Shown: one piece after another, positions 5,018 through 40,536 of the stretch
How positions within the stretch are numbered: the first letter of the stretch is position 1
How the letters are laid out: every line of letters begins with the position of its first letter
IMG/VR virus record: IMGVR_UViG_3300013125_000002
Source of the DNA: a virus
Strand: one strand, 5' to 3'
Length of the DNA: 64,000 bases
Program-made: the position numbers and the translations under genes
Notes under the pieces: model-generated
What the model was told of the DNA's origin: nothing
What the model saw: only the letters and a program-made list of their open reading frames with translations
Database searches by the model: none

Positions 5018-5578
5018 TCAAAGTTGCCAATAGGCATTGCGCTTCCTCGCTTCGACCTTCCGTACCCACACCTCATAGAAGTAGTGGATGGATGCTTCCT
5101 CTTCCTTAAGAACCTGCTCGGTTGGGTAGATAGTATTGATCCTACTCAAAGCCAACCCTGCCTTGAGCTTTGCGATCTCGTATTGCTGCTTTTTGGTAGG
5201 CCTTGGAGGTCCTTCCTCTTTGCCAGCGTAGTATATGGGGTCAACACCAAGAGCTACACCTTCCCACCCAGGAACTGGAACACTCGGTCTGTATGGTGAC
5301 CCCAGGATGCGTTGACGTAACTCATTGGCCGACTCTCCATGCCTGCGCGAGACAGGCATGGGTGATGTTGCAGGGGCTGGCTGTATGGGGCCCGCTTTCG
5401 GCTCACCCTTTCGGCTGAGGCGCGAGATGTCAATAGCACGAGCGCTAGGATAGCCATCAATCTGGATTCTGATCTTACCCCACCCAGATTGATAATCCTC
5501 AACCACAGTGGCCATGCACCCGAGGCACATGTTGCCCCCAGTGATCTGGACACGCTCGCCCTTGAGAAAGAGTGGCAT
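5018..5578 (-). CDS. hypothetical protein with N-terminal KOW/SH3-like domain
   Basis: FLKGERVQITGG...GCMATVVED. Confidence 0.65.
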   Translation of the reverse strand: MPLFLKGERVQITGGNMCLGCMATVVEDYQSGWGKIRIQIDGYPSARAIDISRLSRKGEPKAGPIQPAPATSPMPVSRRHGESANELRQRILGSPYRPSVPVPGWEGVALGVDPIYYAGKEEGPPRPTKKQQYEIAKLKAGLALSRINTIYPTEQVLKEEEASIHYFYEVWVRKVEARKRNAYWQL

Positions 5579-6414
5579 CAGCTCGTCTTGCCCTTCACAG
5601 CCCAGTATGCGTCCTGCCTCTCGATCTTTTGCTTTTCAAAACTCGAAGTCAGATCAGTAAGAGGGATCGATTGGGATGGGAACATAGGTAGCACAGCTTC
5701 GATCCCCTGGTCAGCTATTGCACTCAGAATGCGCTTCAGATCTGACTCGCGTATAAGGCACTCTCCTACTTGAGGTCGATCATCACAACTCTTCAGCGTA
5801 CAGAGACATCTTCCTGTCTCATCCCAACTATCTGTAACTTCCCAAACAGTCATCCGAGGGATCGGATAGTGAAACGAGTTTGTATGTGAAGTCGGCTCAC
5901 CAAATGAAAACTCCACTTGGGTTTCATCACCCACAAATCCTGCTCCACGAAGGTACCACCCCTCAGACGCCCACGTGCAACTAGGCAATTCTTGAGTTTC
6001 AAGAGTCATAATGATCAACTTCGCTAAATTAGAAAGATCAGGACAGGGAATATTGAACTGGGACTGGGTAGATCGAACGATCCTCTCAGCAAACCATCCT
6101 GCATCAGGATCACCAGGAAGCCATAATAGGCCAGGAGGCAACGAGTCACCCTTTAGACCACAGGCTACAAGCCACGATGTGAATGTGGAGCGCACAGCAG
6201 CATTAGTCACAACCTGAGAGAACACGGACGCATCAAATGCGATGTGCAGAGTGAGCATCTGGATTGGGCGGCCAAGCCCATCTCCATACAGCTCCCACTC
6301 TGCATTCGTTAGCGAGAAGCCACAGGGCTTCAACTCATCATGAAGCTTCCGATGAACTAGGCTCGTGTTCGCTGCTGGAATTAACACCCATGTCGGGTGT
6401 GACCCCCTGGGCAT
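5578..6414 (-). CDS. hypothetical protein
   Basis: 278 aa ORF, TGATG coupling to the next gene. Confidence 0.65.
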   Translation of the reverse strand: MPRGSHPTWVLIPAANTSLVHRKLHDELKPCGFSLTNAEWELYGDGLGRPIQMLTLHIAFDASVFSQVVTNAAVRSTFTSWLVACGLKGDSLPPGLLWLPGDPDAGWFAERIVRSTQSQFNIPCPDLSNLAKLIIMTLETQELPSCTWASEGWYLRGAGFVGDETQVEFSFGEPTSHTNSFHYPIPRMTVWEVTDSWDETGRCLCTLKSCDDRPQVGECLIRESDLKRILSAIADQGIEAVLPMFPSQSIPLTDLTSSFEKQKIERQDAYWAVKGKTS

Positions 6415-7102: not shown

Positions 7103-7354
7103 TCATGTCGGAGGAAGTGTATGGAATCGACAGGCGATGCTCGATGCCAAACAGTGGATCTCGATCTCTGTGAGCACACTCACGTGGCGAGCACACCACT
7201 CCCCCCGGAAGAATGAACAAGTGCCACAGACCCGACCCTTTGCTTCCTTGATGATCCCTTCTGCTGCCTTTTGTAGAAGAGCCATGAACTTCTTGTGGGC
7301 ATCAGATGCAGGCCCTACGACAAAAGAGGTTTTGCGCGCCATACAGATCACCAC
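7103..7354 (-). CDS. Cys-rich hypothetical protein
   Basis: CGTC...WC...AC pattern. Confidence 0.55.
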   Translation of the reverse strand: MVICMARKTSFVVGPASDAHKKFMALLQKAAEGIIKEAKGRVCGTCSFFRGEWCARHVSVLTEIEIHCLASSIACRFHTLPPT

Positions 7355-7854
7355 GAGAGGTCGTCATCCCCGTGAATCTCGCATGCCTTGGCTTTGCGTA
7401 GTTCCTCCAGCTCAGCCTGAATAGCAGGATCTTCGTAGACACTGCGAGAGAGTGAATCCACTCCTGTGTTCTTCTCCCGTGGGATCCATTTGAATGTGAC
7501 CGACTTGCCGAACTTGCGTACTGCCTGCTTGACCAGACGATTCAGCTCCATGAGCTTCTCGTCATTGACGCTCCACACACCAGAGCACTGATTGACGATC
7601 AATTGCGAGTCCGATTGTACGATGACAGATCGCCTTTGATCTTCTGGCATCTTGAGCATCCACAAAAGCGCAGCGATGACTGCGTAGTACTCACCTTGGT
7701 TGTTGGTGTTGTCAGGATGTCCGTGATTGGCAATCCCAGCAGCTCGATGAATCTCACCCTTCTCTTTGCCGACGCTCTTCACGATGAATGCCCAGGAGAG
7801 AATGCCACCTGGGTTATGTGGCTCGATGGATGAGTCAGTATTGATGATATACAC
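7348..7854 (-). CDS. rnhA: ribonuclease HI
   Basis: NTDSS..NPG, TNNQGEY, SDSQLIVNQ, WIPREKN motifs. Confidence 0.9.
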   Translation of the reverse strand: MYIINTDSSIEPHNPGGILSWAFIVKSVGKEKGEIHRAAGIANHGHPDNTNNQGEYYAVIAALLWMLKMPEDQRRSVIVQSDSQLIVNQCSGVWSVNDEKLMELNRLVKQAVRKFGKSVTFKWIPREKNTGVDSLSRSVYEDPAIQAELEELRKAKACEIHGDDDLSW

Positions 7855-7857
7855 GGG

Positions 7858-8226
7858 CTACCTTGCCTTCCTGACTTCATCCAGAGCTGTTTCGAGGCAG
7901 AGGACCTCCGCTCGAGTCATGTGCTCCTTTGCCTTTGTGGTAATGAGCTTTCTGATTCTTCTCTTCTGCCAGAAAGACAAAGCTATCCTGATTCGGTTGA
8001 TAGTCATGTCAACCTGGTAAAGCTCACCGTGAGGAACGGCACCCAATACCACTGACTTGCAGCTGATCTCCCACTTACTACTGAGATTGCTGCGTATCCC
8101 CTCGTTGCCGGTTGCTTCGATGTCCTTTCCAGCCAGAGCAGTAATGAGATCGTCAATGATCTCTTTAGGAACCCGAGGCTTGTCCACGACCTCAATCTCC
8201 ACCACAGCAGATGTTCTGTAGGGCAT
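7858..8226 (-). CDS. hypothetical protein
   Basis: ORF in operon. Confidence 0.6.
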   Translation of the reverse strand: MPYRTSAVVEIEVVDKPRVPKEIIDDLITALAGKDIEATGNEGIRSNLSSKWEISCKSVVLGAVPHGELYQVDMTINRIRIALSFWQKRRIRKLITTKAKEHMTRAEVLCLETALDEVRKAR

Positions 8227-8229
8227 CGG

Positions 8230-8433
8230 TCACAACCCTCCCTTTGGGAGGTAGGACACACATGCGAGCCACTCCAGCCCGACCTTCTTCTTCCACTTCT
8301 CCAACTCGCACAGGAAGGCAGCGCTATCTCGGTTCCACTGGCATCGGGTGCAGCTGTCGCACGTTCCCTGCACAGGTTTGAGACCGAGCTGAGGTTTCAT
8401 CGTTATTTCGAGCATGGGAATCTCTGTCGGCAT
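8230..8433 (-). CDS. Cys-rich hypothetical protein
   Basis: CDSCTRC...C...C. Confidence 0.55.
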   Translation of the reverse strand: MPTEIPMLEITMKPQLGLKPVQGTCDSCTRCQWNRDSAAFLCELEKWKKKVGLEWLACVSYLPKGGL

Positions 8434-8618
8434 TCATCCACCTTCCATGTCCACTGCATCTTGATCTGAGCAGTACCAATTGCAATCGACCACGCATGTG
8501 GCCAGGTGTCATGCCCCTTGAGCCAGATCGAAACTGCGACACAGGGTATCATGAGATAGTGGCGTCTGCGCCACACCTTCACATACCAAGGTTGGAACTG
8601 GTAGCGTGGATCTCTCAT
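8403..8618 (-). CDS. hypothetical protein
   Basis: ORF with GGAGG SD. Confidence 0.55.
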   Translation of the reverse strand: MRDPRYQFQPWYVKVWRRRHYLMIPCVAVSIWLKGHDTWPHAWSIAIGTAQIKMQWTWKVDECRQRFPCSK

Positions 8619-8621
8619 GTC

Positions 8622-9029
8622 TTAACCCTCCTTGAGGGTCTTCTCTCCTGCTTCAATGATCTTCTTGGCCTGGGCCTCACTCACCACAGTAAGCTTGGGT
8701 GAGTGAATACGCTTGCCGCCACCTCTTTTCTTGAGACGAGCCAGCTTCTCCTTGTTATCAGCCTTCTGCTCTTCCTCATCGATCCCAGGGAAGCGAATTG
8801 GAAAACCACAGTGGCAGATGAAGCAATTGGCATTGATCACATCTTGCTTCTCGATGTTGTGCTCAGCGCAGAACTCGATGATCTTGCCAGAGAACGGAGT
8901 CAGAAAGCAAGGCTGTCCCTTGTGGTTGATGTAGAAAGGGTGCGTGGAATTGCACCTCTTGCAGATCATCGCAAAGAACTCGATCTTGAAGCACTCAGCT
9001 ACCGGAACATTACCGAAGTCGTAGGCCAT
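8622..9029 (-). CDS. zinc-binding hypothetical protein
   Basis: CKRC...CHCG. Confidence 0.65.
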   Translation of the reverse strand: MAYDFGNVPVAECFKIEFFAMICKRCNSTHPFYINHKGQPCFLTPFSGKIIEFCAEHNIEKQDVINANCFICHCGFPIRFPGIDEEEQKADNKEKLARLKKRGGGKRIHSPKLTVVSEAQAKKIIEAGEKTLKEG

Positions 9030-9041
9030 TGTGATCTCCTA

Positions 9042-9638
9042 TCACCACTTGTCAGAACCAATGCTTCCCTCTGGGGCAAAGGCTTCATCCCCAAGGACAA
9101 CGTTGAGAAGCTTGTACTCCAGATCGATGGAGAACTCATTGCCTCCACCCAGAAGTTGAGCTGCCTTCGCCACACGAGCTGATGGAAATGGGTAGACCAC
9201 CAACAACGAACGCTCGAATGTGGGCTCCACTCTTGCCAGGGGAACAATCATGGCCTCAGCCAGAACCCCGAAATCAAGAAGACCCTTATCAACAAGCATG
9301 TTGAACATTCGTGCCATCTCATCGAAGTACTGCTCCGGAATGCTTGTTCCTTCTTTGTGTTGCACCACCTTCGAGAAGAACACGCAAGGACGAATGTGGC
9401 GTTCACCATTCTCCTCGTACTCGATGATCGTATTCTTTTGTGGTGTTTGGTAGATCTTGCGTGCCTTCTCTGACAGTCGTTCTGCAAACTTCGGCACTTT
9501 CCGGATTCCCAACTGCTGTACTTTCTCCATCATCTGTTCCCTATTCAAGATGAGGATCAGAGGCAGTGTCTTGGGGTTCCCAGCAGCATCATCGTCCCTG
9601 ATCAAAGTCATCACTTTACCTGTGCTGTCAAAGTACAT
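9042..9638 (-). CDS. hypothetical protein
   Basis: 198 aa ORF coupled to MazG. Confidence 0.7.
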   Translation of the reverse strand: MYFDSTGKVMTLIRDDDAAGNPKTLPLILILNREQMMEKVQQLGIRKVPKFAERLSEKARKIYQTPQKNTIIEYEENGERHIRPCVFFSKVVQHKEGTSIPEQYFDEMARMFNMLVDKGLLDFGVLAEAMIVPLARVEPTFERSLLVVYPFPSARVAKAAQLLGGGNEFSIDLEYKLLNVVLGDEAFAPEGSIGSDKW

Positions 9639-9967
9639 CAGATCCTCTTCCCACCATGTCGGTATGGTCTGGTTCTGTTGTAGGACATCTTCTCGAGGAT
9701 CGCCTGTTCTAGGTCAATCCCATGATGAGCTGCTGTTCCCGCTATTCGGATCACAACATCAGCGAACTCAGCTGGAACACCCTCAGGCTTCCCATCCTCG
9801 CGGTAGTACATCTCTGTAGCAGCGTGCCCATTGTGAGACTCCTCTAGGGCCTCCGAAAGCTCGCTGTGCATCAGAGCAATGTCAACAGCGAGGTCCTTCT
9901 CCTGCTCTCGAAAACCATGAGCCACCGCAATCTCCTGAGACTCCTTCATCAGTGCCTTCAGATCCAC
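9638..9967 (-). CDS. MazG-like NTP pyrophosphohydrolase
   Basis: LMHSELSEALE...PAEFADVVIR...EKMSYNRTRPYRHGGK. Confidence 0.9.
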   Translation of the reverse strand: MDLKALMKESQEIAVAHGFREQEKDLAVDIALMHSELSEALEESHNGHAATEMYYREDGKPEGVPAEFADVVIRIAGTAAHHGIDLEQAILEKMSYNRTRPYRHGGKRI

Positions 9968-9977
9968 TTCTGATCTC

Positions 9978-11816
9978 CTATGCGAAAGTCATGATGGGTG
10001 TTCTTCTGAGTCGTTCCAGTGCAACGTTGCAGTAGTTGAGTGCATGCACGCTGTGTGGGTCAAGACCCAAATTGACCCACTCCATCTTGAAGCGACCGGT
10101 CTCCTCATCCTGGACCGTCTTCTGTCGCACGATGCTCTTCATGTGCAGGTAGAAGTGCGTCTCGAAGATGTGGAGTGGTTCGTAGCGACCTGACTTTGGG
10201 CTCCGGCACACTTGAACAAGTGCCCGAGGGTGTGGCCATTCGAAGTCACGATCAGCAATCGATTTCATCGCCATCTCGATGGTGAGGTAGCGACTGAGAA
10301 GCACCGAGTACTTGAACTTGATCTTGGGTCCACCCTTCTTGACCGTTTGCTTCCACTTGGCTCGATCACCCCACTGGGCTACTTCCCTTTGCTGCTCGAT
10401 GTACCAGGAGACAAAGACACGCTTTGGGTGATCTCGTGCGAACTCCATAGCCTCGTTGGCATTCGGCATCGCATCGATGATGCAGAGATCAACATCGTAT
10501 TCCTTCATCAGCTGGTAGAGGCGCTTGAAAGGGGACTGTGGTTTCCCAGCTTCCCAGTAGAGCTGGTTGTGGTCATCAATGATCTCGAAATGGACAATGC
10601 GCTTCTTGTTCCCAAAGCGCTGGGCAATGACCACGTAAATGACACCGCTCATCTGATCCACACCCATGGCAGTGTGGCTCTTGCCCCCACCCCACATCAA
10701 ATCAGTGTTCTCACACGCAATGAGATCATCATCAGTGACCGGAACATTCTCCTCGTCAACGTAGGGCTTGCCCAGTTTGGCGTTGAAAAACTCCTTGATG
10801 TTCTGGGTAGTCTGGTAGGCCTCCCAGATCTCAGCAGCAGTGATGAACTTCGAGAGCATCTGGTGGATGTGATAGCTGTGAACATTCGCTCCAGGATTGT
10901 GGGGGATGAACTGCCCATTCTGGGGATCGATGATCTTCATCTTGCAGCGTGGGCAGCGATAGTAGACCTCCCCTTTTTGAGTGAGAGCAATGCAATCTGG
11001 GAAGACCTCACTCAGGATCACTCCATCAGGGCAGTTACAGCGGGTATGCCAGAAGTTCTGAGTCCCTCGGAGGAACTGCTTGTGGATGTCGGCGTTAGGA
11101 TAGCCAGCAGTTGAGACCTGGAGAACGTACTTGTAGGAGCTATGACTGATGCGCTCACGCGCCTGATCGATGTCTGCTGGATTGAGCAGTCGCACCTCAT
11201 CGAATGCGATCATATCGAAGGGTGTGGAGTCCTTCGACGCAATGCCACCCAGGTGTCTGAGGTAGAGCGCACTCTCCTTGCCAACCTGCTTGTAACCCAG
11301 GGTGTCAGAGTCCTTGACGGCCTCCTTCAACTCAGCATTGGAGTCGATGAGGGGAGACATACGATCTTTGCTGAGGAGTGTGACACCATCTTGGGTCGGG
11401 AAGAAGAAGCAGGCCTTGACAGCATTGTACATGCAGAAATGCAGTAGCTTGGTCAGCTCGAAGATCGTTGCCCCCATCTGAGCTGACTTCATAAGGGTGA
11501 ACTCATGGGCTGTGTCGAGGTAGAGGGGGATCAAATAACGATGCTTGTCGAAGTCAAAAGGCCGGTGGTCAACTTTGAGACCGCTTGTAGCAACCCATAG
11601 CGCCAGGTTGACCTTGGTCAGAGCTCGTATCTGCTCTGGTGTGATGTTCTGCAGCCCCGAAGACTGTCCTAAGCTGCTCAAGTCAATCCCAGAGGGCGCC
11701 AGAGACGAGAAGAGGTCGTTAGCAGCCCCTGCACCTTTCGGCAGCTGTACAGGCGTCCTGGAGAGCTGCTGAATCGGTTTGGTGTAGGGTGTGCGTTTTG
11801 CGGTTGGGCTGCTCAT
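9978..11816 (-). CDS. terL: terminase large subunit, lambda GpA-like
   Basis: KSAQMGAT Walker A variant, IAFDE Walker B, RCPRC zinc motif, FFNAKLGKPY, GVD nuclease motif. Confidence 0.9.
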   Translation of the reverse strand: MSSPTAKRTPYTKPIQQLSRTPVQLPKGAGAANDLFSSLAPSGIDLSSLGQSSGLQNITPEQIRALTKVNLALWVATSGLKVDHRPFDFDKHRYLIPLYLDTAHEFTLMKSAQMGATIFELTKLLHFCMYNAVKACFFFPTQDGVTLLSKDRMSPLIDSNAELKEAVKDSDTLGYKQVGKESALYLRHLGGIASKDSTPFDMIAFDEVRLLNPADIDQARERISHSSYKYVLQVSTAGYPNADIHKQFLRGTQNFWHTRCNCPDGVILSEVFPDCIALTQKGEVYYRCPRCKMKIIDPQNGQFIPHNPGANVHSYHIHQMLSKFITAAEIWEAYQTTQNIKEFFNAKLGKPYVDEENVPVTDDDLIACENTDLMWGGGKSHTAMGVDQMSGVIYVVIAQRFGNKKRIVHFEIIDDHNQLYWEAGKPQSPFKRLYQLMKEYDVDLCIIDAMPNANEAMEFARDHPKRVFVSWYIEQQREVAQWGDRAKWKQTVKKGGPKIKFKYSVLLSRYLTIEMAMKSIADRDFEWPHPRALVQVCRSPKSGRYEPLHIFETHFYLHMKSIVRQKTVQDEETGRFKMEWVNLGLDPHSVHALNYCNVALERLRRTPIMTFA

Positions 11817-11822
11817 GGTCCG

Positions 11823-12665
11823 TTACACACCAGGTGGGGGTCCGACAGGTGACCTCAACTCACTGTCATCCTCTTCATTGGTACCACGCTCTTCGATCTC
11901 CTCAATCTCAGGCGGCCCTGAGATGAAGCTCATCGACTCCATTCCTGCATCAAGAAGCCCCGGAAGGACCACGTTGATGTCGAGTCCATCTTCCACACAC
12001 TTCTTGGAGATCTTCTCGATCAAGCGCTTCAACTTGTTGTTCATCTGGACCATGAGGTGCATCTTTGATCCAAAGGTGAAGAACATGAAGTTGAAGGGAA
12101 CGGTATCCCCGTAGTCTGTGAACAGTCGATTCAGGATGTAGGAGAGATTGTCGATCAGCTTGAGCTGAGCGTTGGCCTCATCTGCTACCTTTCGAACCTT
12201 CTTCTCTTTGGCCTTCCGCTCTTCCTTGTAGTACTCCATCATCTCGTCGAGATCTTTGAAGCCCATCATCTCCTGCAGGACTTCAGTATCAAGGCTCTCT
12301 TCGTTGATGATCTCGTTTGCAAAACGAGTGAACTTGGTCGGGTCCAGCTCGCCCTTGAGACGATTGCGACGAATGACCTTGATCTTAGCTGTCAGTTCGT
12401 CCCAGTTATCCTTGACGACTGCCGGTAGCTCCTCGTAGTCAAGGACACGAGCCGCTTTGTACCGATGGTTTCCCGAAACGATGCGGAACTCTTCAGGACC
12501 AAGATCAGGAGCGGGCACTACCTGGATGGGCTCATCAAAGCCATCCATCTCGATCTCTTGGACGAGATTGTTGAAGGTTTCGTTATCCTGCTCCTGTGGA
12601 TTGCCCTCGAACTCGTGGAGGTGATCCACATGGATGTACTTGATATCAATCTCAGCACGCTTCAC
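11823..12665 (-). CDS. ParB/Srx N-terminal domain protein
   Basis: NPQEQ...GFDEPIQV...IVSGNHRYKAA. Confidence 0.9.
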   Translation of the reverse strand: MKRAEIDIKYIHVDHLHEFEGNPQEQDNETFNNLVQEIEMDGFDEPIQVVPAPDLGPEEFRIVSGNHRYKAARVLDYEELPAVVKDNWDELTAKIKVIRRNRLKGELDPTKFTRFANEIINEESLDTEVLQEMMGFKDLDEMMEYYKEERKAKEKKVRKVADEANAQLKLIDNLSYILNRLFTDYGDTVPFNFMFFTFGSKMHLMVQMNNKLKRLIEKISKKCVEDGLDINVVLPGLLDAGMESMSFISGPPEIEEIEERGTNEEDDSELRSPVGPPPGV

Positions 12666-13387
12666 AGGTAACCTCCAATCAGGTGCCCACCAATGCGGTA
12701 CAGGGTTTTGAAGTGGGCAGCATAAGGCACTCCCAAACGACTTCCGATCTCCTGTGCTCGAAGCGTGAGCATCTCAGGATGCCAAGGGTGCTCAAACCTT
12801 GGGGGCACCTCGGGGGTGTAGGCCTCCATGGCTTGCCGCTGGGCTTTGACGTGGCGTTTCTCGAGCGGCACAAACGTATCCCACTCGAGAGGAGCAGCCT
12901 CGATGTTGGGAATCTCATAGGCAAGAACTTCCAACGAACGGAAGTGGTGAGCAAGAAGAGCATCCGAGAATGGACGAACAGCCACAAGTGTGGCCATGGC
13001 TGCAACACGATGATCCTGATGGAGGCACAAAGGATGATGAGTGTAGATCACAACATCATCTGCTTTGTATTTCAGAATCTCATCCATGATCACCGGAGCG
13101 ATGCATCCAATCTCTGTCGTGCCCAATTGGCTTGTGGGCTTGAAGTCATGAACCTTTCGATCATGAACACCCAATGCTGCGTCCACCTTTCGGTATGCCT
13201 CCGAAATCTGATATCTCATCTCGGACGTATATCGAGAGGTGTACGTTGTAGTGATCAGATGCACTACGACATGGGCTCCAGCCTCAGCATGAGCGGCCAG
13301 GGCTGCCCCCGGTCCAATCACTTCATCGTCAGCATGACAGCCAACTGCAATTACGAGCTTCATGCACCACTCCAGAGAAGGATGCAC
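12662..13387 (-). CDS. PIG-L/LmbE family deacetylase
   Basis: GCHADDEVIG and HQDH metal-binding motifs. Confidence 0.9.
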   Translation of the reverse strand: MHPSLEWCMKLVIAVGCHADDEVIGPGAALAAHAEAGAHVVVHLITTTYTSRYTSEMRYQISEAYRKVDAALGVHDRKVHDFKPTSQLGTTEIGCIAPVIMDEILKYKADDVVIYTHHPLCLHQDHRVAAMATLVAVRPFSDALLAHHFRSLEVLAYEIPNIEAAPLEWDTFVPLEKRHVKAQRQAMEAYTPEVPPRFEHPWHPEMLTLRAQEIGSRLGVPYAAHFKTLYRIGGHLIGGYL

Positions 13388-14130
13388 ACATCCTTTGTGA
13401 CGATGAATGGTTGCAACTGAGTGGCCATCATCATGAAGTCGTGCTTCAGATCACACATTTTGTAGAAGCTCGAACTGGTGAGATAGTTTCTGATCTCCTC
13501 ACCATCTGTCAACTCGATCTTGCTTCGGATGTCAAAACGACCGACCTTCCCTGGCCAGCTTCGGAGCAGTGGCTCTACTACATGTTCTTGGGATCCATAG
13601 AGCTTCTTGAGAACTGGAGGAACAGTTCCACAGGATTCTAGAATCCTCATCAATTCCTGGTTGCAGGTCTCAGCCGATGACGTGACACAAAGTAGACCAT
13701 TTCGCTTGAGACAGGACCTGGCTTCCTCCAATGCAGCTTTGAGATCATTCAGGTAGTAGAGCGAATAGGAGGCCACGACCACTTCCCAGTGGTGCTTGGG
13801 GACGGGCCACGGATACTGATTGAGATCGTGCTTAATGACGTGACAACCTTGATCTTTTGCTCTAGCGATGAGGTCAGCATCGTTATCCAAGCCAACAGCC
13901 TCAACACCAAACAATCCCTTAGCCCAGCCCAGAAATCTCCCCTCGCCACACCCAACATCGAGAAGAGAGGAAGGACGACGGTGCCAGTATGAAGATCGTG
14001 TGACATGCTCAAACACAACACGATCAACATCAAGCAATCGTCCACGATTGATCCTGTTCCAACAGTCCAATCCATCCCACGGCTTACTCATGAGCCAATC
14101 TCCCTGATGACTGGCCATTCCTCCTGGCAA
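13360..14130 (-). CDS. class I SAM-dependent methyltransferase
   Basis: LLDVGCGEG motif I; LKRNGLL motif. Confidence 0.9.
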   Translation of the reverse strand: MPGGMASHQGDWLMSKPWDGLDCWNRINRGRLLDVDRVVFEHVTRSSYWHRRPSSLLDVGCGEGRFLGWAKGLFGVEAVGLDNDADLIARAKDQGCHVIKHDLNQYPWPVPKHHWEVVVASYSLYYLNDLKAALEEARSCLKRNGLLCVTSSAETCNQELMRILESCGTVPPVLKKLYGSQEHVVEPLLRSWPGKVGRFDIRSKIELTDGEEIRNYLTSSSFYKMCDLKHDFMMMATQLQPFIVTKDVCILLWSGA

Positions 14131-15584
14131 TCATCGTAGAGCCCAATCTGATGGAGCCGAGACATCCATTCAGCACGGTTCACTTCGGTGGTGGGATAGC
14201 GCAGAGCGTGGCGATTGAAGTCCCAAGGAGACTCCATAACGTTCGTGATGCGCTGAGCGAAGTCAGCAAAGGAGATCGGGAACTTGGCGCCTTGCTTGGC
14301 AGCCTTGAGGATCTCCGTCCACTGAGTTTCCTTCACCCTCTTCTTACCAGCGAAGTACTTCTCTCTGATCCACTCCAAAGTGCGCTGGTTATTATCCGGA
14401 GAGTGGTAGTGGGCTCGGATGTACTTCTTCACATCCTTCAGTGCATCTTGGACTGAGTCATCCTTCCAGTGATCTTTCATCCACAAGATCATCTGAAGGA
14501 CTTCCTTATCAGAATCACACTTGTAGGGCCACGTGGGGAGCATCTGCTGGCTCCAAGGAGCCTTCCGCATGATCACCGGCACACCCATGTAGAGCAGCTC
14601 ACAGGTTGTGTGAGAACCCTCAGCGTACTGGGCGAGATTCAGGGACACGTGGCAAGAGGCTGCCCGTCTCACGTACTCGTCACGTGGACAAGGAGCTTTG
14701 ATATCGAAGTGCTTGTACTTGGAATCCCACTCCTCTTTGGTGATGCTACGGGGTCTGATTCTTCCACTGGGGGAATTGATCACAACACGGATCTTGTCTT
14801 TCGAGAGGACATAGGCTCGATTGATGATCTCCAGCCCATCCTCGAATCGGTACAGAGCGTAGGTTCGGAAAGACCAATTGATCGAGAACAAAGGGTCCTT
14901 CTCGATCTTCTTGGCATCCTCTTCTAGCTGGTCACAATTGAAACCAGAGTAGATGAAGGTACTTCGTTCCTGAAATTGACGAACCACATGTGGCTTGAAG
15001 AAGCTTCGCAAGACAGCTTCAGCTCGGTGTAGTTGATTCTCAGCGTCGAAGATATTGTAGCCGATCAACCAACCCACACACTGGGCATAAAGCAGCCAGG
15101 GAACGATGTCATTAGCCAGCATGTCTTGGTCGAAGACATAGCCATTGCGAGAGCAGAAGACAAAGGACGGTGAGAAACGACCCAAAGTCCACGGTGTGAT
15201 TGACGACAGCATCGTTGCTGCCATCGGAATGCGATTCGTCAAGAACACATCGAAGTGATACCCGGGCCGGAGGAAGTTGAAGTCGTTGTAGAGACTCAGA
15301 ACTCCAGGGTTCCTCATCTCCTCACGCTGTCGTACAGCTTCATCCCAGAACAGCAATTTGATCCTGGGGTGCTTCAATATCTCGAGGTCTTTGAGTGGAA
15401 GCTTCCAGTAATACTCGTACTTATGCCGAGGCCTCGGTACGCGATTGGGGGCCACCAAATACCAGAAGTCCTCAGGGTAGAGCCTCACCCCATCAGCAGC
15501 CATGTCTCGGTCAACACGCCAGATGTGATCACTGGACATGCTGTTGGAGTTACTCAATACGGAGTAGCACAGGAATCGCATCAT
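14088..15584 (-). CDS. GT-B fold glycosyltransferase
   Basis: C-terminal EGSHTTCELLYMGVPVI resembles the GT4-type nucleotide-sugar binding signature; size fits two Rossmann domains. Confidence 0.7.
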   Translation of the reverse strand: MMRFLCYSVLSNSNSMSSDHIWRVDRDMAADGVRLYPEDFWYLVAPNRVPRPRHKYEYYWKLPLKDLEILKHPRIKLLFWDEAVRQREEMRNPGVLSLYNDFNFLRPGYHFDVFLTNRIPMAATMLSSITPWTLGRFSPSFVFCSRNGYVFDQDMLANDIVPWLLYAQCVGWLIGYNIFDAENQLHRAEAVLRSFFKPHVVRQFQERSTFIYSGFNCDQLEEDAKKIEKDPLFSINWSFRTYALYRFEDGLEIINRAYVLSKDKIRVVINSPSGRIRPRSITKEEWDSKYKHFDIKAPCPRDEYVRRAASCHVSLNLAQYAEGSHTTCELLYMGVPVIMRKAPWSQQMLPTWPYKCDSDKEVLQMILWMKDHWKDDSVQDALKDVKKYIRAHYHSPDNNQRTLEWIREKYFAGKKRVKETQWTEILKAAKQGAKFPISFADFAQRITNVMESPWDFNRHALRYPTTEVNRAEWMSRLHQIGLYDDCQEEWPVIREIGS

Positions 15585-15592
15585 CCACCAGA

Positions 15593-16741
15593 TCAGATGA
15601 AGTTAGCGTGCAGGCGAAGACTGCTCTCCCTCACGTAGTTGAGAACCTCATTGAGATAATCGTATCGACACGCCGAACACCTACGAACAAAAGACGAGTC
15701 ACTTTCGATCTTCTCGATGATTGACTTCCTACGTTCTCCGAACCAGATCGACTTGAAATCTTGATCGTGGATATTGCCAAAGTAGAAATCATCCGAAGCG
15801 AAGCTAAGTGGACAGCAAAGGAACACAGCCCCATTTGATGAGATCGAAGCTACGAAATGGTGACTGAAGCAGTGCTGGAACTGGCGCAGGCGAATGTCGA
15901 AGTACTCCATGCGAGTGAAGAACACACGAAAGCGGTCGCTCTCGTTGTACTTCAATTGGATCTTATTGATCTGTTCAAAACCAAAGTGGTAGACGGCATG
16001 GAGTGGAGGCTTGATGGTGGTCCCTGTACCAGGACTCTCCATGTAAATGGGCTTGAACTGAATGTAGTCCAGCCCTATCTCCCTCACCTTTGACACCAGT
16101 TCATCAATTGCTATCAGATCGTTATTGATCTGAGAGATGATGTACGACACCCCCACAACAAGGGGTCGTTTCCCATTCTGACGGTCTCTGCCTGCTGCTC
16201 GGCGAGCCTGGACTAGCTGTCTCAGGTTGCCCCAGAGCCGCTCCCAATCTGTCTGCCTTCCTCGATGAGCCAACTGGTATTGCTCTGGCGTGGCTGCATC
16301 CAAGCTGATCCTTACGAACTCAGCATCAGCAACGATGCGCTTGAGAATGCCCTCTGAGAAAAGAATTCCATTGGTCAGGTAGGAGACATTGAGCCCAGCG
16401 TCCACCGCCAGATCATGGAACGAGCAGATGTTGGGGTGGAGAAGTGGCTCACCGCCACCTGTGAACAGCATTGCTCGAGTGCTGAGGGCCTTGGCATCCC
16501 GACAGAGCCCACGGAAGGCATCGAACTCAAGTCGGCTACGCCCGGGGCCACTATTGACTCCAGCGTAAGCACACCACGAGCAATGATGATTGCAGGCCCC
16601 TGTTGGTGAGACTTCGATCAAGATGGGGCTGCAGTCTCCTGTCTCTTCCCACTCTTGGATGGTTGCTCGGTTCTGCCGATCCCACAACTTCATTGCCGAT
16701 TCAATGACGGAGTACCGAGTTTCCATGATCCCTAGTCGCAC
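15593..16741 (-). CDS. radical SAM / SPASM domain protein
   Basis: CNHHCSWC, TGGGEP, SLDA; C-terminal C...CC...CSAC SPASM cysteines. Confidence 0.95.
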   Translation of the reverse strand: MRLGIMETRYSVIESAMKLWDRQNRATIQEWEETGDCSPILIEVSPTGACNHHCSWCAYAGVNSGPGRSRLEFDAFRGLCRDAKALSTRAMLFTGGGEPLLHPNICSFHDLAVDAGLNVSYLTNGILFSEGILKRIVADAEFVRISLDAATPEQYQLAHRGRQTDWERLWGNLRQLVQARRAAGRDRQNGKRPLVVGVSYIISQINNDLIAIDELVSKVREIGLDYIQFKPIYMESPGTGTTIKPPLHAVYHFGFEQINKIQLKYNESDRFRVFFTRMEYFDIRLRQFQHCFSHHFVASISSNGAVFLCCPLSFASDDFYFGNIHDQDFKSIWFGERRKSIIEKIESDSSFVRRCSACRYDYLNEVLNYVRESSLRLHANFI

Positions 16742-17349
16742 TTCTCGAGGTAAATGTCACCCTCAGAGAGAAAGAAGAGGTGGTTGGCGGCCGAGAAGAG
16801 ACACTGTGAAGCTGTGCGCTGGAAAGTGTAGACCTCCACTCGCCGTCCTCGTTCCTGCACAGTCTGGATCAGAGGCAGATAGTCACCATCACCACTGACG
16901 ATCACCAATGTATCGAAGGTGCCAAGCGCCTCCATGGTGTCGACAGCAATGCCTACATCCCAATCAGTGTGGAAGGGCTTGGTGATGCCCTTCTCGTAAC
17001 GCATCTGGCGGATCTTGACTTCGTAGCCAAAGCGCTGAAGGGATTCCTGGAACTTCTCAGGACGAGGAAGCGCTTCTTTGATCTTACCGCTAGAGGTTAC
17101 TTTGCGATGGGGAGCCAAAACTGTGTAGGCAACAGCTCGTATCTCACGACTCAGGCCTGGATAGACATCCTGTTTGATCCTATCCAGAAGGCCAGCATAG
17201 TTGACCCTGGCCGATTGACCAAAAGCCTCTCGGCAGGATCGCCACAAGTTGCTCACGTCTACTGCAACGTGAACACGCTCAGTGGCTACTTCTTGAGGTC
17301 GTTGTGGCTGCACTGGCACTGGGTCAGAGGTTTCTGGCAGGTTGCGCAC
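16732..17349 (-). CDS. NYN domain (LabA/DUF88-like) nuclease
   Basis: VDVSN, DWDVGIAVD, VSGDGDYLPL. Confidence 0.9.
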   Translation of the reverse strand: MRNLPETSDPVPVQPQRPQEVATERVHVAVDVSNLWRSCREAFGQSARVNYAGLLDRIKQDVYPGLSREIRAVAYTVLAPHRKVTSSGKIKEALPRPEKFQESLQRFGYEVKIRQMRYEKGITKPFHTDWDVGIAVDTMEALGTFDTLVIVSGDGDYLPLIQTVQERGRRVEVYTFQRTASQCLFSAANHLFFLSEGDIYLEKCD

Positions 17350-17417
17350 TTGGGGATCGAGACTGGTTCTGGCTTTGTTCCAGACGCTGGCTTAGGCTGC
17401 TGCTCTGCCACAATCAC
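17286..17417 (-). CDS. possible 43-aa Cys-rich microprotein overlapping the NYN start
   Basis: GTG overlapping the RuvC stop; encodes ...PKCATCQKPLTQCQCSHNDLKK. Confidence 0.35.
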   Translation of the reverse strand: MIVAEQQPKPASGTKPEPVSIPKCATCQKPLTQCQCSHNDLKK

Positions 17418-17977
17418 ACCGCCTTCTTGACTGGAGTTCGTTTGGGCTCACTGATCTTGTTGTCAATCACAAGCCCATAGTAGGCGAGAAGAGCTGCATC
17501 CGCACGACCATCCAACGATGCAACCTTGCCTTTGGGTTTGGTAAGAGGGAGTGCCGGAAACAGTCGCTGACACTTGGCAACTGATCTTGCTTTAGTGTCA
17601 TCACCACCTACTCCCGTCACTACACGTTTCATCCAGGTCTGTGCCGGCACAATCTCATAAGAGAGCTTGAGCCCTGCCAAGATCCCCTTCCAGAGACCAA
17701 AGCCCTCACCAGTCTTGAATGTCGAGGAAACCCCCTGCTTGGTCATGGGTCGTGCCTGCTCCAACATCACCATGACCGGCATTCCCAGCGCCGACTTCAC
17801 GACCTCCTCGAGCCTGGACACCATCTCCTGCTCGAGAAACGCATTCTTGGTCTTGCCCTTCGCCCCAAGATCAATGATAGGCGTATCGAAGTAGGCAAAG
17901 ACCTCTAGCGTGTTTGTGATTGCTACGACAGCCCCGTGGAGCCCGCCATCAATCCCGACTGATAGCCAACTGGCCAT
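17414..17977 (-). CDS. ruvC: RuvC-like Holliday junction resolvase
   Basis: VGIDGG, MLEQ, QGVSSTFKTGEGFG, DGRADAALLA. Confidence 0.9.
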   Translation of the reverse strand: MASWLSVGIDGGLHGAVVAITNTLEVFAYFDTPIIDLGAKGKTKNAFLEQEMVSRLEEVVKSALGMPVMVMLEQARPMTKQGVSSTFKTGEGFGLWKGILAGLKLSYEIVPAQTWMKRVVTGVGGDDTKARSVAKCQRLFPALPLTKPKGKVASLDGRADAALLAYYGLVIDNKISEPKRTPVKKAV

Positions 17978-20311: not shown

Positions 20312-22135
20312 TCATTGAGCAGAACCAAAGACTTCGGGGCACTCAATGACCAGAAGGTCCCGAATGAGCCCTGCGACCTCACGCATCTGTGGATGAGCTT
20401 TCGGCGAAGTCCGCAACTTGATGAAGTGCAGCCACTCGCGGAAGTTGGCAGTGACCACGAACTCCGTCTTGAGGCAAGTCGGAAGCACAGAGCGAGCTAT
20501 CTCAGGCTTGCAGCCGTGTTCGATCATGTTCAGATAACAACGCTCGGCAGTCTCAACAGAGAGTCGCCACTGGTCTCGGTTGAATCCAGTGCCCATCTCA
20601 GCCAGACCTGGCGGTTCGATGACAGTGATCTCCCCACCAAACTTGGCTTTGGAGTAGTTGCAGTACCGCGAACTCTCCTGAGAGTAGCTTGCTAGCCGAT
20701 GTCGAACGAACTCGTGTGAATTACCAGACCAGCATGGCCGCCCATTCCTCCTCACATACAGCAGGTGATTTGGCACTGTCACACAGTATACGTTGCCGTG
20801 ATATTCCTCCCATCGTTCGTGCGGCTCTCCGTGGAACATCTTTTCGCCGTGATTGACTAGTGGAGTATTTCTACCTGTCACGTAGGAGATCACGTGACAA
20901 GGATGTCTATGAGTCAATCCAGACAAGCCACCAAGTTTCCCAACACGATCATCTATCCATGTCGTGGCGGATATCCCAGCATACAAGGCCGCCTCCTGAA
21001 GGTCGTCAGCCAACCCCGGCGAGATCGTGTACGCCTGCATGTGCCCAGTCTTGCTGTGTACTGAGCCATCACCCACAACATGACATAGAAGAAGTTGCAG
21101 AAGATCAGCCCCTGAGAAGTTTTGGAGAACTGACCTTGGAATACGCTTGTTTATTGCACCATGATATGGGAGCAAATAGTGGTAGAGAGCTACGTCACAG
21201 ATCGAAATCTGTTTGTTGATTTCGGATCCATTGTTGGCAATCGCTGGCTCGTAGCCCATTTCTCGCAAGACGACAAGCATATCTTGCAGGGCAGGTCCCA
21301 CATTTTGATACAGCTGGATCTGATAGGAGGAGCCCGCTGTGTGCTCTAGCCCTCCCTCAGCAAGCCAGTAGCCAAGAAACTTGGCAAACAGACCGGTGGG
21401 AAAGGTACGGCCGCGTCGTGTATGAGGACTAATCGTGCCATGCCTATTCCCCTGCTCAGTTATGAAGTCATCAATCGTGATCTGGTTCCAACCACCTGAC
21501 CTCCGCAAAGCATCACGTTTGTAGCTGACTCGTTTCCCTGCGATCTTCTCAGCAGACAGCAACTGCCAACCTTCCTCACCACGTCGAGCCGCTTGCGTAT
21601 CGTGCTTCTGGACGTACATGCTGTGCTCTGGCGTCACGAGCAAGTTGATCAGGCTAGTTCTGATATTGTACATCTCACCGTCGTACCGCTGCCTAATCAA
21701 TACAGACGCCGGTTGAAATTCTACTTGCCCGTGTGGCCCCAGTGTAGCAAACCGCTCATCACCACATACATCCGGCCAGGACCGCCACCCTTCAGACGTG
21801 AGGACATCAGTGTCATCAGAGTAGCAACAACCACGATCACAGATCACTCGGAAGCTGGCCACGGCATGCTCGACCACAGATTCGTGTCCGCGCTCGTGGA
21901 TCATCTTGACGAATGCCGTCGCACTGTCCTTTGTGATCTTGTCTTCACTCTTGTAGCAGGTTCTCCCTGCTCGCTCAAGAAACTGAGCAGCGTTGGGAGT
22001 GATGAACAGTAGCTCTACTGACTGCGGAACGATCTTCATTGTCGACTCCTCAGTACTTCCCACGTCGATAGTTGCCCAGCCGTAACCCAGACCAAAGACA
22101 ACTACCATGCAAAGGACAAAGGTTGTGCAAGTCAT
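20312..22135 (-). CDS. thyX: FAD-dependent thymidylate synthase containing an intein (alternative start at 22039, MKIVPQ)
   Basis: GRTCYKSE, GHESVVEH, SHEFVRHRLASYSQESSRY, PEIARSVLP, NFREWLHFIKLR. Confidence 0.95.
   Translation of the reverse strand: MTCTTFVLCMVVVFGLGYGWATIDVGSTEESTMKIVPQSVELLFITPNAAQFLERAGRTCYKSEDKITKDSATAFVKMIHERGHESVVEHAVASFRVICDRGCCYSDDTDVLTSEGWRSWPDVCGDERFATLGPHGQVEFQPASVLIRQRYDGEMYNIRTSLINLLVTPEHSMYVQKHDTQAARRGEEGWQLLSAEKIAGKRVSYKRDALRRSGGWNQITIDDFITEQGNRHGTISPHTRRGRTFPTGLFAKFLGYWLAEGGLEHTAGSSYQIQLYQNVGPALQDMLVVLREMGYEPAIANNGSEINKQISICDVALYHYLLPYHGAINKRIPRSVLQNFSGADLLQLLLCHVVGDGSVHSKTGHMQAYTISPGLADDLQEAALYAGISATTWIDDRVGKLGGLSGLTHRHPCHVISYVTGRNTPLVNHGEKMFHGEPHERWEEYHGNVYCVTVPNHLLYVRRNGRPCWSGNSHEFVRHRLASYSQESSRYCNYSKAKFGGEITVIEPPGLAEMGTGFNRDQWRLSVETAERCYLNMIEHGCKPEIARSVLPTCLKTEFVVTANFREWLHFIKLRTSPKAHPQMREVAGLIRDLLVIECPEVFGSAQ
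20720..21826 (-). mobile_element. 369-aa intein with LAGLIDADG endonuclease in thyX
   Basis: Begins CYSDDTDVLT; block B VTPEH; FLGYWLAEGG and HVVGDGS; ends WSGN followed by Ser; removal restores DRGC-SHEFVRHR. Confidence 0.95.
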
Positions 22136-22343: not shown

Positions 22344-24251
22344 TCAGAAGATGAACTTCGTCTGGCCGTTTTCCTTCACGACCTGGATGGTCTTGTTGAA
22401 GAATGACTTCAAATGGTCCTCGTGAGTGATGACAAAGATCGACCCACTTGTGGCCACCATACTGCTGAGAAGCTGCATCACACTTTCGACCCCAGGCTCA
22501 TCCAGCCCCTCGAATGGCTCATCAAACCATCGCTGAGGTAACGACTTCCGAGACCTGGCTGACACAAGATCAGATATGGTGAAGTTGATCGAAAGGTCTG
22601 CACGTCTTCTCTCCCCACCACTGTTGCCCGCGTAGTTCTCAGCTCCGGCTTTGTTCTGCACCGAAACGTTGAATTGCTCTCTTGTCTCACCGCTCTTCAG
22701 AGTCGTTTGGGTTTGGAACTTGATCTCAAGATCGCCTTCCGTCAGTGCTTCACTGTACTCCGCGACCTTTCGATTCATGTACGGGACCACGTTACCAAGA
22801 ACGAAGCTCTTGAGTCCACGGTTACTAAAGCCCGACACCCAGAACTCGAGGTACTGCTTCTCGAGACTGACAGCACGGATCTTGGGAACCAGTGGAATGA
22901 GTTTCGCCTGAGCCTGGTGGTGCTGTTCCTCAGCCTCTTCGATCAGCTCAAGGAACCCAGAGGTCTTGGCCTTCACTCGTTCGATGTCTTGTTCGAGGTC
23001 GTGACGGTCACTCTCGTAACCATCAATGACACTTTGCTGGCTCTTGGCTTGAGCCAACTCTGACTCAAGCTGGTGCTTTTGCTCCTGAGCCTGCTCCAGG
23101 AGCTTCCTGCCATCCTCCAGAGACTCCTCACGTGACTTCTCACCCTGTTCAGCAAGCTCTGTAGCCTCCCGAAGAGCTTCTGTAAGGCGGGGAAGCGCCA
23201 TACCCGTCTGATCAGCCTCAGCCTGTAGAGCGTCGATAACAGACGCCTGGCTTTCGGCTGTCACTTCCTGACCACAAGTAGGACAAGTTCCAATCCTCCC
23301 CAGAGCCTTCAGCCGTTCCTTATCCAGGCGTTCTAGCTCGCGTATGACTGCCATGCGATCAATAATCGCCTGATTCTTGTAAACCGAGAGCTTCCTCAGC
23401 TCAAGTTGACTTGTGGTTGTGTACTTCTGGTAGATATCCGTCATCCCCTCGAGCTTACTGCAAGCAGCTACGAGGTCTTTCTCAACCTGCTTCACGTCAC
23501 GCTGAGCTGCCTTGAGCTGACTGAGTTTCTGATCAAGCACTTGCAGTTTGGATTCTAGAACCCTTACTTCCTCTTGTTTCGCGGAATCAAACTGTTGATG
23601 CAGCTGGTTGTACCGAGATACTTCACCTTCGGCCCAAGCAATCTTCTGCTCCAGAGCCTCGCGAACCCCAAGCCAACCATTGAGTTCAAGAGTGAGCGCA
23701 GCGACCCGCTTCTTCACGTTGTCATGAGCTTTTGCGATGGTGGCAACCTGCACCGCTCGCTCAAGCACATTCTTGATCTCAGAGTCTGTCATCTCACTGA
23801 AGCGCTTGAAGCTCCCCTGTGGGAGCATCGGCCCCTGGATGAAAGTCTCGAAATCAATGCCAAGAATCTTGTGGATCTCAGCCTGCGTGTCAGCTGTAGT
23901 TGCCTTCGTGAGATCAGCAAGAGGAGTGCCAATATCATCTACCAAATGAAGCTCGAGCCGATTCTTGTACTGACTGTGCTTGCGATAGCGAGCCACACGA
24001 TAGTGGGCATTATTCTCCGAGACGTACCCCACAACGTGGCAGTTCTTGCCAACGGAGCGGTTCACTACCTCATCTGCTGTGTAGCCTCGGACAGTCTGCC
24101 CAAAGTAGCACCAGCAGATCGCTTCATAGATAGTGGACTTGCCATGACCATTCTCACCTGTGACCAGAACTAGGCCCTGGTTAGCAAGCGGAATGATCTG
24201 ACGATCACCAACTCGGAAGAAGTTCTCGATCTCTATCTGTTCGAAGATCAT
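22344..24251 (-). CDS. sbcC: SbcC/Rad50 (gp46-like) ATPase
   Basis: GENGHGKS Walker A, CPTCGQ zinc hook, SGGERRR signature, FDEPF, ITH. Confidence 0.95.
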   Translation of the reverse strand: MIFEQIEIENFFRVGDRQIIPLANQGLVLVTGENGHGKSTIYEAICWCYFGQTVRGYTADEVVNRSVGKNCHVVGYVSENNAHYRVARYRKHSQYKNRLELHLVDDIGTPLADLTKATTADTQAEIHKILGIDFETFIQGPMLPQGSFKRFSEMTDSEIKNVLERAVQVATIAKAHDNVKKRVAALTLELNGWLGVREALEQKIAWAEGEVSRYNQLHQQFDSAKQEEVRVLESKLQVLDQKLSQLKAAQRDVKQVEKDLVAACSKLEGMTDIYQKYTTTSQLELRKLSVYKNQAIIDRMAVIRELERLDKERLKALGRIGTCPTCGQEVTAESQASVIDALQAEADQTGMALPRLTEALREATELAEQGEKSREESLEDGRKLLEQAQEQKHQLESELAQAKSQQSVIDGYESDRHDLEQDIERVKAKTSGFLELIEEAEEQHHQAQAKLIPLVPKIRAVSLEKQYLEFWVSGFSNRGLKSFVLGNVVPYMNRKVAEYSEALTEGDLEIKFQTQTTLKSGETREQFNVSVQNKAGAENYAGNSGGERRRADLSINFTISDLVSARSRKSLPQRWFDEPFEGLDEPGVESVMQLLSSMVATSGSIFVITHEDHLKSFFNKTIQVVKENGQTKFIF

Positions 24252-40348: not shown

Positions 40349-40536
40349 TTGCTGAATCTCTCCCTCAGCTCTTTGATCTTCTGGCGGTTGCGTTCTGCTT
40401 GTTCGTAGTTTCGCGAACCGTAGGCGCCACCCTCCCACAGCTTGGCGCAGTACTCGAGGTACTCGAGATGTGCCTCGAGTGAACGGTACTGATTGTCGGA
40501 ACCCAGGAACTTCATACTGCTAGTGACCGTCTGCAT
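40345..40536 (-). CDS. hypothetical protein
   Basis: Small ORF in operon. Confidence 0.5.
   Translation of the reverse strand: MQTVTSSMKFLGSDNQYRSLEAHLEYLEYCAKLWEGGAYGSRNYEQAERNRQKIKELRERFSK

Follow-up and report, generated by a model that had tools for sequence, protein, structure and literature searches.

A packaging-linked glycosyltransferase and ParB pair as the core of a candidate DNA amino-glycosylation module in phages

We analysed a cassette of enzyme genes in a 64,000 nt stretch (the window) of the IMG/VR virus record IMGVR_UViG_3300013125_000002, which is part of a metagenomic phage of ~145-152 kb. The most probable reading of this cassette, at about 0.5, is that it serves to amino-glycosylate DNA with the assistance of a ParB protein. 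Its invariant core is a glycosyltransferase (GT), of a family that we named GT-480, and a cognate ParB protein. The folds and families of the products, their catalytic motifs, the translational coupling of the genes and the synteny of GT and ParB are what the analysis shows and are presented first, followed by the proposed pathway and its alternatives.

A conserved glycosyltransferase and ParB pair upstream of the terminase

Genes were identified from the list of open reading frames (ORFs) and by profile scans with Pfam, PHROGs and NCBIfam. Nearly all genes of the window are on the minus strand, and they are also present on JGI contig Ga0172371_10000051 and on a contig of 152 kb. The chain reads, on the minus strand, radical S-adenosylmethionine (SAM)/SPASM enzyme (rSAM), GT-B glycosyltransferase, class I methyltransferase (MTase), PIG-L de-N-acetylase, ParB-N protein, GpA-type TerL (9978..11816; PF05876, GpA_ATPase, 45 bits; phrog_675 E 2e-90) and MazG-like pyrophosphatase. 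An earlier prediction made from the sequence alone (the original prediction) had claimed such a chain at 9638-16741, leading into terL and mazG, and had called it packaging-linked; all seven genes were confirmed, the GT by its structural model and the others by the profile scans, and the placement holds. In the JGI gene calls for the same phage, 4-nt overlaps join GT to MTase, MTase to PIG-L and PIG-L to ParB, the remaining junctions being gaps of 6-10 nt. The seven genes are one tightly coupled chain. The cassette lies between the resolvase and terminase genes, its 4-nt overlaps continuing into ParB, and the arrangement is not due to chance, because it recurs in many unrelated phages.

Eight GT-480 homologues were sampled regardless of ParB, and downstream of each of them a ParB_N gene followed either directly or after one or two other genes. 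These came from the window, the loci L004, L006, L010, L065 and L066, the P0135 contig and Arthrobacter phage DanielleIgnace, and the ParBs beside GT-480 were mutual homologues with 26-40% identity. As a reverse test, the window ParB was searched with tblastn against 50,697 cultured-phage records (INPHARED), which gave 22 records at E<=1e-8. GT-480 was present in 22/22, directly upstream of ParB wherever the position was seen. The records comprised Arthrobacter AT-cluster phages and DanielleIgnace, Rhodobacter RcF phages and RcZahn, the Stenotrophomonas phages DLP5, DLP3 and Summit, Agrobacterium phage JP1, Rhizobium phages TM16 and Y1_11, and four Vibrio phages. In an all-against-all comparison only GT-480 and ParB were universal among 19 lineages. 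The original prediction had set as a test whether homologues group with host lipopolysaccharide (LPS) or exopolysaccharide loci; the GT homologues were conserved beside ParB and terL instead, in both samples.

When IMG/VR loci were seeded with ParB alone, GT-480 was found upstream in 13 of ~24 full-length relatives. On the ParB tree the association with GT was clustered: it required 6 changes, whereas shuffled labels required 10.3 on average, and 6 was reached in 5/500 shuffles. The usual order downstream of ParB was a ~210-aa protein, TerL and portal. Three unrelated TerL families were found downstream of the pair, in phages with hosts from Actinomycetota to Vibrio, and the pair therefore heads the packaging module whatever the terminase type. 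To our knowledge, a GT-480/ParB pair without a thymine dioxygenase (5mYOX) has not been described as a unit in the literature searched.

Some loci carried more than one copy of a core gene. Two ParB paralogues (5498-6301 and 13307-14080) flanked the glyco-cassette in L004. Arrival of this cassette by transfer together with its own ParB was considered and rejected, as both L004 ParBs fell in one clade with GT-less ParBs. Two tandem ParBs followed two tandem GT-480 genes in L066 (7879-9496). In L065 a module of PIG-L, WbqC, GT-480 and ParB (7300-11527) lay beside an S24 repressor-like gene, and the opposite strand carried a CBASS-like set (SMODS, Cap17-like, PLD nuclease).

The GT-480 glycosyltransferase

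The window GT (14088..15584, minus strand, 498 aa) had no Pfam or NCBIfam match. A HMMER search of 1.8 billion representative sequences recovered 163 representatives of ~480 aa with ~20-26% identity to it, which constitute GT-480. One member, on the P0135 contig, matched PF00534 (Glycos_transf_1). A scan of IMG/VR with the window GT gave no match. The isoelectric points of GT-480 proteins ranged between 5.4 and 9.4 and gave no guidance on function.

An AlphaFold model of the window GT, built on 50 relatives, reached a predicted local distance difference test score (pLDDT) of 89.5 and a predicted template modelling score (pTM) of 0.91. It has two Rossmann-like domains with an inter-domain cleft, the GT-B fold. 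Foldseek matched it with probability 1.0 to MshA, PglA, BshA and PimB' (TM score up to 0.77 by target); SdgB and LmbT were also among the structural matches, and T4 beta-GT was absent from the best 50. The GTs of Arthrobacter phages were full-length structural matches with TM scores of 0.8-0.9. E329 and H312 were nearly invariant across the family and may include the acidic donor-binding residue expected in the EX7E region of the C-terminal domain. The JGI call starts the GT at residue 28 (471 aa) and drops the conserved first strand. The longer ORF is the real one, because the N-terminal strand (R3) is conserved family-wide. On the strength of the model and its matches to GT4 enzymes, which uphold the GT-B assignment made in the original prediction, GT-480 is assigned as a GT-B, GT4-like glycosyltransferase; it is the conserved core enzyme of the cassette.

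The ParB protein

The ParB-N gene (11823..12665, minus strand; ParB/Srx fold) was assigned by a PF02195 score of 40.2 bits against a cut-off of 26.3 and by phrog_26387 (E 7e-52). Its model (pLDDT 81) comprises a nucleotide-binding domain, a long helix and a small C-terminal domain, and Foldseek placed it near Noc, ParB and KorB at E 1e-8 to 1e-10. It differs from the canonical chromosome or plasmid partition ParB in three respects. After the nucleotide-binding domain there are only helices (109-185) and no clear helix-turn-helix (HTH), the CTP motif reads G-N-H-R instead of the canonical GERR, and the ORFs scanned with Pfam included no ParA gene. Its TIGR00180 score of 42.5 bits was also under the cut-off of 58.45. 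A role as small terminase subunit is unlikely, as a separate ~210-aa protein stands between ParB and TerL in most relatives.

Phage ParBs with nucleotide-binding and C-terminal domains and without an obvious DNA-binding domain activate their cognate thymine dioxygenases on double-stranded DNA (PMC13229309), and the window ParB model shares this architecture. The commonest neighbours of phage 5mYOX are a GT, ParB and terminase (PMC13229309). Prediction of a complex between GT-480 and ParB gave a score of 0.00, which counts neither for nor against binding.

Tailoring enzymes

The rSAM gene (15593..16741, minus strand) encodes 382 aa from a GTG start, with an ATG at residue 6, and the translation carries the cluster motif CxxxCxxC as CNHHCSWC. 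The JGI call starts at an internal codon, giving a 292-aa product without this motif. The protein matched PF04055 (Radical_SAM, 53 bits) and PF13186 (SPASM, 41.8 bits), and its NCBIfam scores were all far under the curated cut-offs, so that no equivalog was reached. The closest sequence matches of solved structure were DesII (2e-8) and BlsE (3e-6). Its homologues (~27-30% identity) were surrounded by epimerase, MTase and GT sugar genes. One lay in a flagellin-glycosylation-like island of a proteobacterial metagenome-assembled genome, another adjoined a phage adaptor gene, and in L004 a homologous rSAM adjoined GT-480. Both the nearest solved relatives and the sugar-gene neighbourhood agree with the sugar-remodelling function that had been proposed for it, and the rSAM/SPASM protein is probably a sugar-remodelling enzyme.

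The MTase (13360..14130, likely start 14091, minus strand) is of the small-molecule class I SAM type, with matches to Methyltransf_23/11/25/12/31 and none to a DNA-MTase family in Pfam. MTases of the same Pfam type were found beside GT-480 in DLP5 (record annotation), the P0135 contig and L066. The PIG-L/LmbE-family de-N-acetylase (12662..13387, or from 13363, minus strand) scored 40.1 bits against PF02585 (cut-off 28.2), shows the metal-binding motifs CHADDE (HADDE) and HQDH, and had BshB1 as its best NCBIfam match. A GT4 enzyme followed by a PIG-L enzyme, that is transfer of an N-acetylhexosamine (HexNAc) and then de-N-acetylation, is the logic of MshA/MshB, BshA/BshB and PIG-A/PIG-L. The sugar logic of the original prediction was borne out in that a GT4-like GT is paired with PIG-L and the rSAM is closest to the sugar-acting DesII and BlsE. 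There is good support for a HexNAc transfer with subsequent de-N-acetylation and additional tailoring, whereas the sugar itself and the succession of the reactions are inferred.

Across the 19 lineages the tailoring genes varied. PIG-L was found in 8/19, NAD-epimerase/dehydratase in 8, DegT aminotransferase in 4 and WbqC-like genes in 4, and one or few loci carried extra GT4-like genes, UDP-glucose dehydrogenase, rSAM, class I MTase, an ATP-grasp ligase or an N-acyltransferase. By their family assignments, all of these variable genes encode sugar enzymes. The original prediction recognised the window combination from no characterised phage, but absence from cultured phages does not hold. The module is carried by the cultured phages DLP5/DLP3, RcTiptonus, Kitkat, DanielleIgnace, Vibrio phage PG28 and Rhizobium phage TM16. 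The combination of the window is not unique either, because a metagenomic phage (P0135) contains the full set of rSAM, MTase, PIG-L, GT, ParB and TerL, in the order epimerase, PIG-L, rSAM, MTase, ATP-grasp, GT-480, ParB, TerL.

Relatives with restriction-refractory DNA

Two of the cultured carriers have been tested with restriction enzymes. DLP5 DNA was cut by 4/36 enzymes (PMC5834331) and DLP3 DNA by 0/15 (PMC7326821). DLP5 carries PIG-L, WcaG, WecE, MTase, GT-480, ParB and TerL, its GT having been assigned to GT-480 by a hidden Markov model (E 3e-48), and no TET/JBP, ThyA or TGT gene was found in it to account for the resistance. The papers on the Vibrio and Rhodobacter module phages contain no restriction or modification data.

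Proposed pathway and alternative explanations

The pathway that follows is our inference as regards the sugar, the succession of reactions, the DNA acceptor and what ParB does in it. With a nucleotide sugar as donor, GT-480 would attach a HexNAc-type sugar to phage DNA after its replication, and ParB would be its DNA-loading or activating partner, as for the phage thymine dioxygenases. PIG-L would then remove the N-acetyl group, exposing an amine, and the class I MTase and rSAM/SPASM enzyme would tailor the sugar. The expected product is an amino-sugar modification of DNA, bulky and probably cationic, which would keep restriction enzymes from cutting. Methylation of the exposed amine and a coupling of modification to packaging by ParB, both put forward in the original prediction, are hypothetical. 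Support for DNA as the target, which the original prediction had assumed, is indirect; it comes from the GT-ParB coupling, the ParB-dependent dioxygenases (PMC13229309) and, as the most telling point, the refractory DNA of DLP5 and DLP3 (PMC5834331, PMC7326821). The structural neighbours BshA and MshA are also shared by proven DNA GT-B enzymes (Pyle et al., bioRxiv 10.1101/2023.12.21.572611). A more far-reaching form of this proposal, which we put forward tentatively and would not expect to hold in full, is that GT-480 and ParB are a new class of ParB-dependent DNA GT, acting on a canonical base or new acceptor without a hydroxymethyl-pyrimidine precursor, and that variable tailoring sets (PIG-L, MTase, rSAM, DegT, ATP-grasp) lead to cationic amino-sugar DNA modifications in phages of at least six host genera.

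Several observations weigh against the DNA amino-glycosylation reading. Cassettes with multiple GTs and amino-sugar genes (DegT, WbqC, epimerase) fit protein or polysaccharide glycans equally well, and the rSAM homologues occur in the flagellin-glycosylation-like island and beside phage structural genes. About half of the IMG/VR loci have related ParBs before the terminase without GT-480, so that ParB may itself function in packaging. The restriction data of DLP5 and DLP3 are crude and come from distant relatives (~31% ParB identity). Pfam scans detected no Tet_JBP (PF12851), ThyA or TGT among the window ORFs, confirming the original observation that no hydroxymethylase or TET gene is visible there; ~80 kb of this phage lie outside the window searched. 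Scans for PF12851 and PF00303 gave no match either, for 11 cultured genomes that bear the module and for 27 IMG/VR records, of which five are at least 90% complete. In the complete module-bearing genomes these searches were empty even at E<=0.1-1, 5mYOX being sought with Pfam PF12851 and not with the phage-specific profiles of O'Toole et al. PF01702 (TGT, the 7-deazaguanine/DpdA route) was absent from DLP5, RcTiptonus, Kitkat and DanielleIgnace. The conserved module has no hydroxymethyl-pyrimidine or deazaguanine enzyme of a known kind, and since no TET/JBP, ThyA-type or TGT enzyme was found, a DNA target needs a new acceptor or an unrecognised enzyme.

The alternative that survives best, which we nevertheless regard as unlikely, is glycosylation of virion proteins. 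GT-480 would put an unusual amino sugar on capsid, tail or other late proteins, and the proximity to ParB and terminase would reflect late co-expression only. The position of the cassette directly upstream of packaging and structural genes is in keeping with this, as are the extra GT4-like, DegT, WbqC, epimerase and UDP-glucose dehydrogenase genes, which resemble protein or O-antigen glycan pathways, and the two rSAM homologues in the flagellin-glycosylation-like island and beside the phage adaptor gene. A protein O-GlcNAc transferase, SdgB, is among the structural matches of the GT, and virion glycosylation is cited for actinophages in PMC12619734. However, late co-expression leaves unexplained why a cognate ParB accompanies GT-480 in 8/8 and 22/22 cases even though terminase types and gene orders differ, and virion glycosylation does not explain the refractory DNA of DLP5 and DLP3, which carry no other known modification genes. 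In addition, DanielleIgnace has a separate GT (gp21) within its structural module.

The acceptor could instead be a classical one, 5-hydroxymethyl-uracil (5hmU) or 5-hydroxymethyl-cytosine (5hmC), formed by an enzyme that lies outside the window or is too divergent for Pfam. The cassette would then be a new member of the 5hmU/5hmC glycosylation pathways. We know of no DNA glycosylation that uses anything other than a hydroxymethyl-pyrimidine. Those named in the literature consulted, including those of Pyle et al., all use such a base, and thousands of contigs have 5mYOX-like genes without Pfam annotation (O'Toole et al., PMC13229309). The window itself has ThyX, deoxynucleotide monophosphate kinase (DNMK) and MazG genes, and the ~80 kb beyond it could hold others. 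The gene directly after terL in DLP5 (L057 13278-14171; record 73334-74227) has a weak ThyX match (E 3e-6) and is a candidate for a divergent pyrimidine-modifying enzyme. Nonetheless, the empty PF12851 and PF00303 searches in complete genomes count against such a route, and conservation extends to no gene beyond the GT-ParB pair. ThyX, the only thymidylate synthase in the window, was rejected as a universal precursor enzyme, being present in only 2/17 module-bearing records. We consider a classical acceptor rather improbable.

The least probable explanation, and one to which we give little credence, is that the target is neither DNA nor virion, GT4 and PIG-L making a glucosamine conjugate on a small molecule or host envelope polymer (a bacillithiol/mycothiol-like compound or receptor-masking glycan) beside an unrelated packaging or partition ParB: the best structural and family matches are indeed MshA/BshA and BshB1, the authors on DLP5/DLP3 view these genes as morons acting on host membrane or LPS (PMC5834331, PMC7326821), and DLP5 replicates as a phagemid, which makes a partition role possible (PMC5834331), but Pfam and NCBIfam detected no cysteine ligase (MshC/BshC) and no membrane-anchored GT among the cassette proteins, the module is found in strictly lytic-looking large phages such as the window phage, the ParB features described above (no clear HTH, and no ParA among the scanned ORFs) do not suit partition, and the GT-ParB coupling is left unexplained.

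Neighbouring genes and other features of the window

The last gene of the chain, a MazG-like nucleoside-triphosphate pyrophosphatase (9638..9967, minus strand; phrog_3301 E 4e-33, no Pfam match), was not conserved with the module in other loci. Directly upstream of the rSAM gene lies a gene for an NYN-domain (PIN-like RNase) protein (16732..17349, minus strand; PF01936 E 7e-24). It was absent beside GT-480 in the other loci compared, and its membership of the cassette is doubtful. Further upstream is a RuvC-like Holliday-junction resolvase (17414..17977, minus strand; phrog_1770 E 1e-19), and in L004 and Vibrio phage PG28 the module is likewise preceded by RuvC-type genes. A scan for promoters and terminators gave nothing above chance level, and no near-identical phage was found in INPHARED.

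The palindrome RTTCTAGAAY occurs in 8 copies in the window, against 0.08 expected, at 899, 1867, 3286, 13635, 19405, 23552, 50030 and 58170; one of them falls within the MTase gene of the cassette. The palindrome may serve as an operator, as a target of methylation or as a site for ParB.

The ThyX (Thy1) gene (20312-22135, minus strand, 607 aa) has two Thy1 stretches split by a LAGLIDADG_3 domain, and its product is probably an intein-containing flavin-dependent thymidylate synthase. DNMK, of the T4 gp1 type (24248-24835, minus strand), is encoded between SbcC-like and SbcD-like genes. A small SLOG/DprA-like protein (56384-56818, minus strand) and an N6/N4 DNA methyltransferase (57385-58248, minus strand) were also identified; DprA-like genes are found just upstream of GT-480 in RcTiptonus too. 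A CobT-like von Willebrand factor A (VWA) protein and an AAA_5 (CobS-like) ATPase (38480-40438 and 41617-42906, minus strand) have an MgsA_C protein between them. In module-bearing siphophages of 80-100 kb (L018, L024, L027, L030, L058, L059) terL is followed by the gene for a ~700-aa PPDK-like "kinase" (phrog_18609), to which PG28 and TM16 add tyrosine phosphatases.

Comparison with known systems

The GT-480/ParB module is widespread and strongly conserved, the partner of ParB is a GT, and no known acceptor-forming enzyme was found. The phage DNA glycosylation that we found in the literature is built on 5hmC or 5hmU (Pyle et al., bioRxiv 10.1101/2023.12.21.572611), and activation of a DNA-modifying enzyme by a ParB fold has been shown only recently (PMC13229309). 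Two culturable carriers, DLP5 and DLP3, have heavily restriction-resistant DNA, and such carriers make their modification and ParB-assisted DNA glycosylation directly testable questions. If the target is DNA, the module would represent new DNA chemistry and a source of new enzymes for DNA labelling; if it is the virion instead, it would be a widespread protein-glycosylation system outside actinophages.

DLP5 and DLP3 (Delepquintavirus) share with the window PIG-L, MTase, GT-480, ParB and TerL in the same order. They differ in having WcaG and WecE instead of rSAM and in being temperate siphophages of ~96 kb, and their GT identity to the window is low. The rSAM resembles the sugar-acting DesII and BlsE, its nearest solved relatives, in also having a neighbourhood of nucleotide-sugar enzymes, although only the rSAM core is similar (E 1e-6 to 1e-8). 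The cassette follows the two-enzyme logic of MshA/MshB, BshA/BshB and PIG-A/PIG-L, where its best matches by structure and family are also found. In some relatives of the cassette an ATP-grasp ligase, N-acyltransferase or WbqC is present in addition and would use the freed amine as MshC/MshD do. Unlike that of MshA, BshA and PIG-A, the acceptor of GT-480 would not be inositol-phosphate, malate or phosphatidylinositol; GT-480 also has only ~10% sequence identity to these enzymes, is phage-encoded and is tied to ParB and terminase.

The phage 5hmC GT-B enzymes (GT94/GT53/GT66; Pyle et al., Cell Rep 2024) are similar to GT-480 in fold, in their BshA/MshA neighbours, and in having accessory sugar enzymes and ParB or terminase as genomic neighbours. 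They need a C5-MTase with 5mYOX, or ThyA-type synthases, whereas GT-480 has no such partner and exceeds them by ~100 aa in length, with a helical extension at its C terminus. The ParB-dependent 5mYOX pathways (O'Toole et al., PNAS 2026, PMC13229309) place a ParB fold without an obvious DNA-binding domain beside a DNA-modifying enzyme, with GT, O-methyltransferase, epimerase and terminase neighbours and a proposed post-replicative action, an arrangement that resembles the one described here. Unlike them, neither the window nor any module-bearing genome tested has PF12851, and whereas the constant partner of ParB in those pathways is a dioxygenase, in the module described here it is a glycosyltransferase.

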